Shown here piece after piece: positions 122-1,625 of a DNA stretch of 1,625 nucleotides. Position 1 is the stretch's first letter, and every line of letters starts with the position of its first letter. The translations under genes were made by a program, and so were the position numbers. The stretch lies in the NCBI GenBank assembly GCA_000004985.1, contig GG739366.1. The stretch is one strand, 5' to 3'. Source of the DNA: Naegleria gruberi. Its lineage: Eukaryota. The notes below the pieces were generated by a model. It was not told the origin of the DNA. It saw only the letters and a program-made list of their open reading frames with translations, and ran no database searches.

Positions 122-634
122 ATGTCAATTGTTAAAAAATTATTTGGTGGATCTCCAAGTAAACAACCATCATTATTTAAAACATCCATATATAGAAAAT
201 CAGATCCATTTTATAATTTTATTAATCAATTTAGTGAAAATGATTTAATTCAACCATTAATATCTTCATCTCTTTTACCATTACCAGTTGATGTTAAAGA
301 ATCAGATAAAGAATTTGAATTACTTGCTGATATTCCTGGTTTTTCTAAAAATGAAATTAATTGCCTAATTGATCAAGATAAACATTTGTTAACTTTAAAA
401 GGTGAAAAGAAAGAAGAAAATGAAGAAAATGAAGGAAATTATATTATCAAAGAACGTTATTATAATTCCTTTACAAGACATTTTGATATTCCTTCAAATG
501 TTAATTTAGATCAAATTAAAGCTCAATTAAAAAATGGTCAACTTAAATTAACAATTCCAAAATTAGAAAATCAAAATGAAACTGAAAATGTTAATAATAT
601 TAAGAATATTGAAATTAATACTTTAAATGAATAA
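122..634 (+). CDS. Small heat-shock protein, Hsp20/alpha-crystallin family (170 aa); resembles the dictyostelid hspG paralogue group
   Basis: The translation carries a textbook alpha-crystallin domain: PVDVKESDKEFELLADIPGFSKNEINCLI...LTLKGEKK...ERYYNSFTRHFDIPSNVNLDQIKAQLKNGQLKLTIPK. Its N-terminal region has an SDPFYNF (DPF-type) motif, and its C-terminal tail has an I-x-I motif (NIEIN). I chose ATG 122 as the start because of its context ttgaaaATGtca, the 5'UTR-like A-rich sequence upstream, and the TATA box at 8-15. The track ORF 38..634 is the same frame with a non-coding-looking 28-aa extension (MCTLIKKTTPELQLLITLIKYNNINNLK). The stop is TAA at 632-634. No intron is needed. Codon usage (TTA, CCA, GGT, AGA, CAA, GAA) fits the genome. 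Confidence 0.9.
   Translation: MSIVKKLFGGSPSKQPSLFKTSIYRKSDPFYNFINQFSENDLIQPLISSSLLPLPVDVKESDKEFELLADIPGFSKNEINCLIDQDKHLLTLKGEKKEENEENEGNYIIKERYYNSFTRHFDIPSNVNLDQIKAQLKNGQLKLTIPKLENQNETENVNNIKNIEINTLNE
284..562 (+). other. Alpha-crystallin domain (ACD) core of the small heat-shock protein; it contains an acidic KKEENEENEGN insertion encoded by a GAA-rich purine tract at 401-439
   Basis: Conserved ACD landmarks can be read in the translation: the ADIPGF strand, the R in ERYYNSFTR, and the GxL motif in NGQLKLTIPK. The EEN-EEN insertion lies between the LTLKGEKK strand and ERYY, a loop that varies in length between small heat-shock proteins. Confidence 0.8.
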
Positions 635-635
635 A
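630..635 (+). terminator. AATAAA polyadenylation-signal hexamer overlapping the heat-shock gene stop codon; more copies at 728-733 and 736-741
   Basis: Seen directly: tgAATAAAttt. AATAAA is common by chance in DNA that is 93% A+T, so which copy is used cannot be told from sequence. Confidence 0.3.
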
Positions 636-750
636 TTTCTTTTAAATTTCTTCTAAATTTCCCATTAATTAAATATTACAATAATATTTAATAATATACT
701 AATAATTAATAATAATTATAATTAATTAATAAAATAATAAATATTAATAA
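635..750. other. Convergent intergenic / dual 3'UTR region between the plus-strand heat-shock gene and the minus-strand microprotein gene
   Basis: The 116 bp between the two stop codons are about 93% A+T, with no G and only a few C. A candidate minus-strand ATTAAA signal appears as plus-strand tttaat at 687-692, about 60 nt past the minus-strand stop. Confidence 0.6.
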
Positions 751-963
751 TTAATCTCTTCTTGTTCTAATTTGATGTACAAGTGCTGGATTTTGATTTT
801 TTAATATTTGTGGATTAATTTGATCATACATTCTATGATTTTTTTGTACATGAAATTTCTCTCTTAATAATTCTTCATATTCAAGTCTTTCATTATGAAA
901 CATTAATCCTTTCTTTTCATCATCACGTACTCCTACTATTGCTAATATAACTGGTATTATCAT
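751..963 (-). CDS. Small protein (70 aa as a single exon): short N-terminal hydrophobic segment (MIIPVILAIVGV) followed by a charged, helix-prone tail (RDDEKKGLMFHNERLEYEELLREKFH...RTRRD); family unassigned
   Basis: A 70-codon open frame in roughly 72% A+T sequence is longer than expected by chance. G+C rises to about 28% across 754-960 against about 7% in the flanking intergenic DNA. Codon choice matches the neighbouring genes (CCA, TTA, AGA, CAA, GAA). The stop is TAA at 753-751. The start as drawn is ATG at 963-961, but its context (agtggaATGata) lacks the usual A-run, and the hydrophobic stretch is too short for a full transmembrane helix. See the finding on a possible upstream exon. I see a weak, unverified resemblance to single-pass mitochondrial respiratory-complex accessory subunits (COX6C-like V-x-D-x-x-K-K-[AG] and [FY]EE[ML].[RK] patterns). 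Confidence 0.55.
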   Translation of the reverse strand: MIIPVILAIVGVRDDEKKGLMFHNERLEYEELLREKFHVQKNHRMYDQINPQILKNQNPALVHQIRTRRD

Positions 964-987
964 TCCACTTGTTATTATATATATTTA

Positions 988-1034
988 TATTATTATTATT
1001 ATTATTATTATATTGATGATGATGATATATATAT
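988..1034. repeat. Compound microsatellite (TAT)8 at 988-1011, (GAT)4 at 1015-1026, (AT)5 at 1025-1034
   Basis: Seen directly. It lies immediately upstream, in minus-strand sense, of the 70-aa ORF, in either its 5' leader or an intron. Confidence 0.9.
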
Positions 1035-1051
1035 GATAATGTTCATGTTGT

Positions 1052-1096
1052 TGATGATGGTGATGATTATTTGTTGATGATAAAGTGATGATGAAT
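1052..1096. repeat. Imperfect GAT/GTT-rich triplet tract (tgatgatggtgatgat ... gatgatgaat)
   Basis: Seen directly. Read on the minus strand it is CAT/CAC/CAA-rich (HHHHQQHEH in the frame of the downstream ORF), but an in-frame TAA 8 codons before ATG 963 follows it. Confidence 0.7.
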
Positions 1097-1252
1097 AAAA
1101 AAGCCTTTAAAAAAGAAACGTACAATGAAGCATATTTCATTACTTTCATTTTTTTATATTTAATTTTTTTATTAGAAATGTTATCAGGAAATTCTCATCC
1201 ATTAAATATATTTAATATTAAGAGATCACTTTACAATCGAGTTGTTTTTCAT

Positions 1253-1341: not shown

Positions 1342-1625
1342 ATGTCCAACAAGAATAATCATCATCATGATCATCATCAGCCTAACTTGACGACTAGTAA
1401 GAAATATATAAAACAAGAGGAAGATGAATTATCAACAATAACAAGAAAGTTATCATCATCACCTACTACTACGGAATCACTTTCTCCTTCTCCACCTATA
1501 AAAGCCTCATCAACATCATCATTAGGCTCATCATTGAATTATGATAAAATTGATAAAACTGATAATAATAATAGTAATAATAATATATTTAGAAGAATTC
1601 TTAATTATATAATACATACACTTTA
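1342..1625 (+). CDS. 5' end of a protein-coding gene, open to the window end (94+ codons), with a low-complexity His/Ser/Thr/Asn-rich N-terminus of unknown function: MSNKNNHHHDHHQPNLTTSKKYIKQEEDELSTITRKLSSSPTTTESLSPSPPIKASSTSSLGSSLNYDKIDKTDNNNSNNNIFRRILNYIIHTL...
   Basis: The start context is caaaaaaaATGtcc, a typical A-run start context. In frame 1 (coordinates congruent to 1 mod 3) I found no stop codon from 1342 to 1625 by manual codon-by-codon reading, which is unlikely by chance in AT-rich DNA. G+C is raised (for example cctactactacggaatcactttctccttctccacc). The six-frame track omits it only because it has no in-window stop. The overlapping track ORF 1085..1390 is in a different frame. 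Confidence 0.65.
   Translation, partial: MSNKNNHHHDHHQPNLTTSKKYIKQEEDELSTITRKLSSSPTTTESLSPSPPIKASSTSSLGSSLNYDKIDKTDNNNSNNNIFRRILNYIIHTL
1360..1377 (+). repeat. (CAT)3 GAT (CAT)2 coding triplet repeat giving HHHDHH
   Basis: Seen directly, inside the CDS that starts at 1342. Confidence 0.8.

Follow-up and report, generated by a model that had tools for sequence, protein, structure and literature searches.

We describe here an unannotated microprotein gene on the minus strand of a Naegleria gruberi scaffold. Sequence comparison indicates that this gene probably has two exons, with a first coding exon of 26 nt (1149-1124) joined across a phase-2 intron (1123-968) to a second exon (967-751). The window, by which we mean the whole stretch of DNA that was analysed, corresponds to one entire scaffold (1625 bp) in the N. 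gruberi assembly. We infer splicing in the organism of the window by comparison with orthologous loci.

Reading frame and features of the gene model

The minus strand of the window has an ATG at 1149-1147, directly after AAATATAAAAAAA, and a second ATG at 963-961, which lies in the same frame 186 nt downstream and follows AAGTGGA. The hexamer GTACGT at 1123-1118 falls 26 nt after the upstream ATG, in phase 2, and an AG is found at 969-968. Recomputing the coordinates returned each of these elements where the original prediction had placed it. The intervening segment has GT (1123-1122) and AG (969-968) at its ends, as expected of a GT-AG intron, and removal of 1123..968 (156 nt) restores an open frame, giving an uninterrupted 243-nt coding sequence with no internal stop. 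The spliced product would be an 80-aa protein, MKVMKYASFGMIIPVILAIVGVRDDEKK...RTRRD. Read without splicing, ATG 1149 opens a 54-aa ORF; these two products are also as first quoted. The minus-strand ORF from ATG 963 is 70 aa long. The predicted features of the gene are as follows.

1150..1162, minus strand: A-rich start context AAATATAAAAAAA, immediately upstream of the predicted initiator ATG; an A-run is also present in three of three orthologous loci
1124..1149, minus strand: predicted coding part of exon 1, 26 nt, ATGAAAGTAATGAAATATGCTTCATT, encoding MKVMKYAS and the first two bases (TT) of a split Phe codon
1118..1123, minus strand: putative 5' splice site GTACGT, beginning 26 nt after the ATG, phase 2
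968..1123, minus strand: putative phase-2 GT-AG intron, 156 nt, 80% A+T, with position and phase identical in four loci
972..1094, given in plus-strand notation: trinucleotide microsatellites (TTA)13 at 972-1011 and imperfect (TGA)29 at 1014-1094 (Tandem Repeats Finder)
985..987, minus strand: in-frame TAA ending the 54-aa unspliced reading, 7 codons before ATG 963
968..970, minus strand: putative 3' splice site AAG, in the same alignment column as the orthologous acceptors; exon 2 would start at T967
751..967, minus strand: predicted coding part of exon 2, comprising the third Phe-codon base, GMIIPVILAIVGVRDDEKKGLMFHNERLEYEELLREKFHVQKNHRMYDQINPQILKNQNPALVHQIRTRRD and the stop codon at 753-751, and containing the internal ATG 963-961

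The 80-aa product had zero matches in a word-index protein search, and the 70-aa ORF has no exact entry in the protein and ORF collections.

Homologs and orthologous loci

Searching 1.84 billion representatives exhaustively by HMMER, with the 70-aa ORF as query, yielded three matches. Two of them, P0009 (56 aa, E 7.7e-7) and P0010 (79 aa, E 3.9e-6), have 54-56% core identity. P0012, a cluster-mate of P0010, is the N. fowleri 'hypothetical protein FDP41_011610' (XP_044567393.1). P0013, a sequence from an ENA metagenome, came out of a profile search. The alignments have 20-22 invariant columns and the core E-x2-EYE-x-LLR-x-K-x3-QK-x2-RMYD. This conservation marks the minus-strand ORF of 70 aa as a genuine gene, and the window gene is a new, unannotated member of a family that is already annotated (in N. 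fowleri) but uncharacterised.

The remaining match, the top-scoring P0008 (2842 aa), was rejected as a false positive: its score consists of about 5.7 bits summed over ten near-identical repeats belonging to an unrelated T/V/S/D-rich protein. The 56-aa P0009 shares a 90% identity cluster with P0011, a 952-aa sequence from a Logan assembly that we take, from the way it reads, to be a UvrA-type excision-repair ATPase; its presence in this cluster is evidently a clustering artefact. The microprotein has no Pfam match at E<=0.1, and its best match in a PDB sequence-profile search (E 0.32) is at chance level. Rfam returned sub-threshold matches only (22-23 bits against cut-offs of 45-80), and a tRNA search found none. 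A suggested likeness of the microprotein to SMIM20/PET100-type small mitochondrial assembly factors was set aside, having no Pfam or PDB support.

The N. fowleri protein FDP41_011610 (XP_044567393.1 / KAF0982680.1, 79 aa) is the only named homolog of the microprotein, and the record of the window itself is N. gruberi, so the dictyostelid frame in which the gene was originally interpreted is not supported. The two proteins are ~41% identical overall and 56% identical in the core. They share the core ...EYE-LLREK---QK--RMYD..., the C-terminal RRD and an N-terminal uncharged segment followed by a charged helix, and the window tail extends 3 residues further at the C-terminus in the alignment. The likeness extends to the gene structures, each with two exons, an A-run ATG, an exon 1 of ~30 nt, an intron at the same column and a GTnCGT donor. 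The genes differ in the length of exon 1 (32 nt in N. fowleri, 26 nt in the window) and of the intron (193 and 156 nt), in the acceptor (CAG and AAG) and in GC3 (0.21, compared with 0.09 for the window microprotein gene). The N. fowleri intron, unlike that of the window, is not microsatellite-rich, and the N. fowleri gene is annotated whereas that of the window is not.

The other two relatives are environmental sequences, P0009 (JGI 3300002220, locus L002) and P0013 (ENA ERZ27250632, locus L003), with GC contents of 39-43%. They resemble the window in 54% core identity, a mini-exon (29 nt), the same phase-2 intron position and an AAG|TG acceptor, but have shorter introns (40 and 49 nt), the consensus donor GTATGT and no ATG at the start of exon 2.

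We enumerated all combinations of ATG, GT and AG that open into the conserved ORF at each of the four loci. The same solution emerged at all four, which represent only three independent lineages: an A-run ATG, a mini-exon, a GTnnGT donor, a phase-2 intron and an [A/C]AG|TG acceptor. The individual solutions are listed below.

Window: A-run ATG; exon 1 of 26 nt; donor GTACGT; intron of 156 nt; acceptor AAG|TGGAATG
N. fowleri: A-run ATG; exon 1 of 32 nt; donor GTTCGT; intron of 193 nt; acceptor CAG|TGCAATG
L002 (metagenome): A-run ATG; exon 1 of 29 nt; donor GTATGT; intron of 40 nt; acceptor AAG|TGCTGCT
L003 (metagenome): A-run ATG; exon 1 of 29 nt; donor GTATGT; intron of 49 nt; acceptor AAG|TGTTGCT

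The distance from the acceptor to the downstream codon that aligns with ATG 963 is exactly 4 nt at every locus. The split codon (Phe in the window, Ile in N. fowleri, L002 and L003) is located exactly 17 residues before a conserved Asp at all four loci and the phase is 2 throughout, from which it follows that the position and phase of the predicted intron are identical. The comparison of orthologous loci that had been proposed as a check on the model thus came out in its favor on both counts, with a first exon of 29-32 nt after an A-run ATG, and a phase-2 intron whose acceptor occupies the same column, in three of three relatives.

For the N. fowleri gene the intron is already present in the deposited model, since the annotated gene FDP41_011610 spans 433 nt for a 240-nt coding sequence (79 aa), which leaves a 193-nt intron. 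The annotated protein begins MEFVRNNWFTI-AMMATFG... and the raw genomic ORF begins MYVLFHEHFNS-AMMATFG..., the two differing only before the junction. Divergence upstream of a single point is, at the level of sequence, the signature of a splice junction. The annotation pipeline that produced the N. fowleri FDP41 models as a whole used BRAKER1 with RNA-seq (PMC6831594), and the short first exon of the N. fowleri gene is therefore likely to have read support.

The pair L002 and L003, on which alone we assessed exon-like and intron-like divergence, diverges in the manner expected for a real intron between real exons. Their exons differ by 14 synonymous and 5 non-synonymous codon changes with 0 indels. 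In the putative intron, 11 of 50 columns are gapped, with the GTATGT and AAG ends conserved. At L002 (2887-2910) the exon-1 ATG of the microprotein gene comes just 22 nt after the stop codon of an upstream gene on the same strand; going by this spacing, the source genome must be very compact, with the promoter or transcription start inside the neighboring gene. Two metagenome scans with the family alignments produced no further confirmed locus, and the upstream neighbor of the N. fowleri gene has no similarity to the partial upstream gene of the window.

Three of the four database entries of the family are artefacts of intron-blind ORF calling, the spliced NCBI model from N. fowleri being the sole exception. 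P0010 and P0013 carry translated intron at their N-termini, and P0009 is an exon-2 fragment starting at TTG. The positions concerned are:

L001: 2168-2380 and 2361-2600
L003: 50-289
L002: 3001-3171

Short first coding exons followed by an early, short, AT-rich GT-AG intron are found in compact protist genes and are commonly missed by gene finders and ORF callers. Compared with this class the window gene is mechanistically ordinary, its distinctive features being the helix-splitting position of the intron and the trinucleotide repeats that fill it.

Splice signals and competing readings

The predicted intron was originally described as 156 nt of nearly pure A/T microsatellite with the size and composition of a dictyostelid intron. 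Its length and its richness in repeats stand, but it is 80% A+T rather than nearly pure A/T, with trinucleotide repeats making up ~120 of the 156 nt (Tandem Repeats Finder); in minus-strand notation these are (TAA)n at 972-1011 and imperfect (TCA)n at 1014-1094. Naegleria introns average 126-203 bp, with a minimum of ~30 bp used for mapping (PMC8296547), and a length of 156 nt is ordinary by this standard.

The donor had been seen as the weak point of the model. GTACGT nevertheless retains A at +3, G at +5 and T at +6, departing at +4 alone (C), and the GTTCGT of the N. fowleri ortholog is less canonical still. A literature search found no published consensus for Naegleria 5' splice sites. As a stand-in we used a neighboring split guanylate-cyclase gene of N. 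fowleri, whose apparent donors, a small unannotated sample read by eye, are GTAAGT, GTGAGT, GTATGT, GTATGT and GTAAGT. G at +5 and T at +6 are invariant across the window, ortholog and guanylate-cyclase donors, and +3 and +4 are variable. On the acceptor side, the AG at 969-968 is the sole AG between the in-frame TAA (987-985) and ATG 963, and one of just two in the whole stretch 1123-964. The 3' part of the predicted intron, ...AATATAAATATATATAATAACAAG, offers many TAAT/TAAC-like candidates for a branch point with no single outstanding one, and the AG and an ATAAC motif are just 4-5 nt apart.

To estimate how often such an arrangement arises by chance, we shuffled the 378-nt intergenic region of the window 20,000 times with its dinucleotides preserved. 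An AG fell exactly where the orthologs have their acceptor in 1.6% of the shuffles, and an acceptor AG combined with an ATG having A at -3 and an in-phase GTnnGT donor occurred in 0.02%. A looser requirement, for the acceptor AG with any in-frame ATG...GT, was passed by ~78% of the AG-bearing shuffles and has no discriminating power.

The main rival to the two-exon model is an unspliced mRNA, either starting within 964-1120 or starting upstream and carrying a 54-codon upstream ORF, from which a 70-aa product would be translated from ATG 963. We regard this as unlikely, though it is possible at the window locus, also as a minor isoform. ATG 963 is present with a purine at -3, and the N. fowleri protein has Met-Met at this position. 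An in-frame ATG is kept at the start of exon 2 in both genes, and a 70-aa form in the window and a 67-aa form in N. fowleri, made without splicing or by internal initiation, are therefore possible. The repeat-rich stretch has one ATG only (1046), making it a tolerable leader, and the C at +4 of the donor and the lack of a convincing branch point in the AT-rich 3' part of the intron speak against splicing. These points are set against the placement of the AG, the in-phase GTnnGT and the A-run ATG as in the orthologs, an arrangement rarely reached in the shuffles. The corresponding N. fowleri segment has 8 ATGs, an unusual number for a leader. Under the scanning model little re-initiation is expected after a 54-codon upstream ORF, in this case one ending 21 nt before ATG 963.

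At L002 and L003 the unspliced reading is impossible. At both loci the first ATG in exon 2 is downstream of the predicted transmembrane segment, so that exon 1 is needed for the conserved protein there, and at L002 a TAA stands two codons upstream of the junction. The alternative offered with the original prediction, an unspliced leader carrying an in-frame upstream ORF, can therefore not apply to these loci. A regulatory leader of this kind would be expected to have a conserved AUG and arrangement, and exon 2 of L002 and L003 lacks an AUG at its start.

The consequences for the protein also distinguish the readings. With exon 1 the uncharged segment is 17, 20, 20 and 20 aa long in the window, N. 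fowleri, L002 and L003, respectively; without it the lengths are 12 and 13 aa in the first two and no such segment is found in the last two. The claim that the first exon extends the hydrophobic stretch is thereby borne out, with 12 uncharged residues in the window becoming 17, and the 12-residue stretch of the 70-aa product is too short for a membrane span.

A second alternative keeps the intron of the two-exon model and moves the start to ATG 1140-1138, giving an exon 1 of 17 coding nt and a 77-aa protein, MKYASFGMII... MAFFT aligns the Met of this ATG with Met1 of the orthologs, and the L002 and L003 orthologs also have a second Met, at position 4. We nonetheless consider this start very improbable. 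The A-run context seen before the initiator in all orthologs belongs to ATG 1149, which a scanning ribosome would reach first if it is within the transcript. All four loci share the N-terminal pattern M-x-[VFYH]-[MV]-[KR] when counted from Met1 without gaps, and this gap-free fit from the first ATG favors ATG 1149 over ATG 1140.

Other first exons can be paired with the same acceptor in a compatible frame, namely ATG 1252 with a donor GTGATC at 1229 (a 262-nt intron, giving MKNNSIVN-GMII...) and ATG 1133 with a donor GTTTCT at 1119 (giving MLHCT-GMII...). Neither has the A-run context or a donor with G+5 and T+6. Both lack the N-terminal motif, leave the hydrophobic segment unextended and have no equivalent in the orthologs, and we give this reading almost no credence.

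Predicted protein, scaffold context and significance

In the two-exon model, transcription would start upstream of 1149 and the ribosome would initiate at the A-run ATG 1149. The major spliceosome would remove the 156-nt phase-2 GT-AG intron 1123..968, largely composed of trinucleotide repeats, joining TT|T to form a Phe codon and fusing the 9 exon-1 residues MKVMKYASF to GMIIPV.... From exon 1 would come a basic flank at the N-terminus and the beginning of a transmembrane helix of 17 residues, and from exon 2 the remainder of this helix together with the conserved charged helical tail ...EYEELLREKFHVQKNHRMYD.... For the 70-aa part, AlphaFold2 predicts an entirely helical structure at low confidence (pLDDT 59), in which one long helix covers residues 3-36. 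The product, as we infer it, would be a microprotein of 80 aa that is anchored by its N-terminus, crosses the membrane once and ends in the charged helical tail, which is conserved. The likeliest role for it is that of a small subunit or regulator anchored in the membrane, its helical tail directed toward a soluble compartment.

On the plus strand, the ORF at 122-634 encodes an Hsp20/alpha-crystallin protein of 170 aa (Pfam PF00011, E 9e-22) that matches N. gruberi EFC35321.1 / XP_002668065.1 (NAEGRDRAFT_77025) along its whole length with 100% identity; neither version of this ORF had an exact entry in an ORF look-up. The closest relative of the Hsp20 protein, with 67% identity, is SRC SRR3989338_465958, taken to be an ORF from a soil metatranscriptome catalogue, and its read-through leader confirms the Hsp20 start MSIVKKL. 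The Hsp20 gene and the microprotein gene point toward each other, their 3' ends separated by an AT-repeat spacer of 116 nt (635-750); nearly all of window positions 632-755 is AAT/TAAT-type tandem repeat, with 13-15% GC. On the other side, a third gene (1342-1625, plus strand) begins MSNKNNHHHDHHQPNLTTSKK... and runs off the scaffold end. It and the microprotein gene are divergent, their start codons lying 192 nt apart, and it is of low complexity, rich in His, Asn and Ser, with no family match.

The scaffold as a whole has a GC content of 22%, its genes have GC3 values of 0.05-0.16, and TTA and AAA are the dominant Leu and Lys codons. This composition is dictyostelid-like although the record is N. 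gruberi, the genome of which is 33-35% GC overall (PMC8296547, PMC9928731). In N. fowleri and the metagenome relatives GC3 is 0.21-0.36 and TTG is the preferred Leu codon. The scaffold could represent either an atypical part of the N. gruberi genome or foreign DNA in the assembly. Analysis with ContScout has reported contaminants in the N. gruberi assembly, mostly bacterial, by a method that cannot separate protist from protist. Given the GC3 values and the dictyostelid-like codons, the scaffold may stem from an unsequenced, extremely AT-rich amoeba. We also considered that the repeat-filled intron, whose in-frame reading runs to a stop 7 codons short of the internal ATG, may act as a retention switch between the 80-aa membrane form and a 54- or 70-aa product; both the retention switch and the foreign-amoeba scaffold are quite unlikely. 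The splice conclusion is independent of where the scaffold originated.

With this analysis, a scaffold in the reference assembly of N. gruberi gains a gene that had been missing, its structure corrected to two exons. The structure is of a well-known kind and calls for no change to concepts of splicing or translation. The case illustrates that ORF-based gene calling truncates or mis-starts such genes, and that comparison by itself is enough to recover a 26-nt exon. Together with N. fowleri FDP41_011610 and the two environmental sequences, the window gene defines a small family of putative membrane microproteins with a conserved intron that splits the predicted transmembrane helix. If the scaffold does come from a foreign AT-rich amoeba, the microprotein and its helix-splitting intron would be conserved well beyond one genus.
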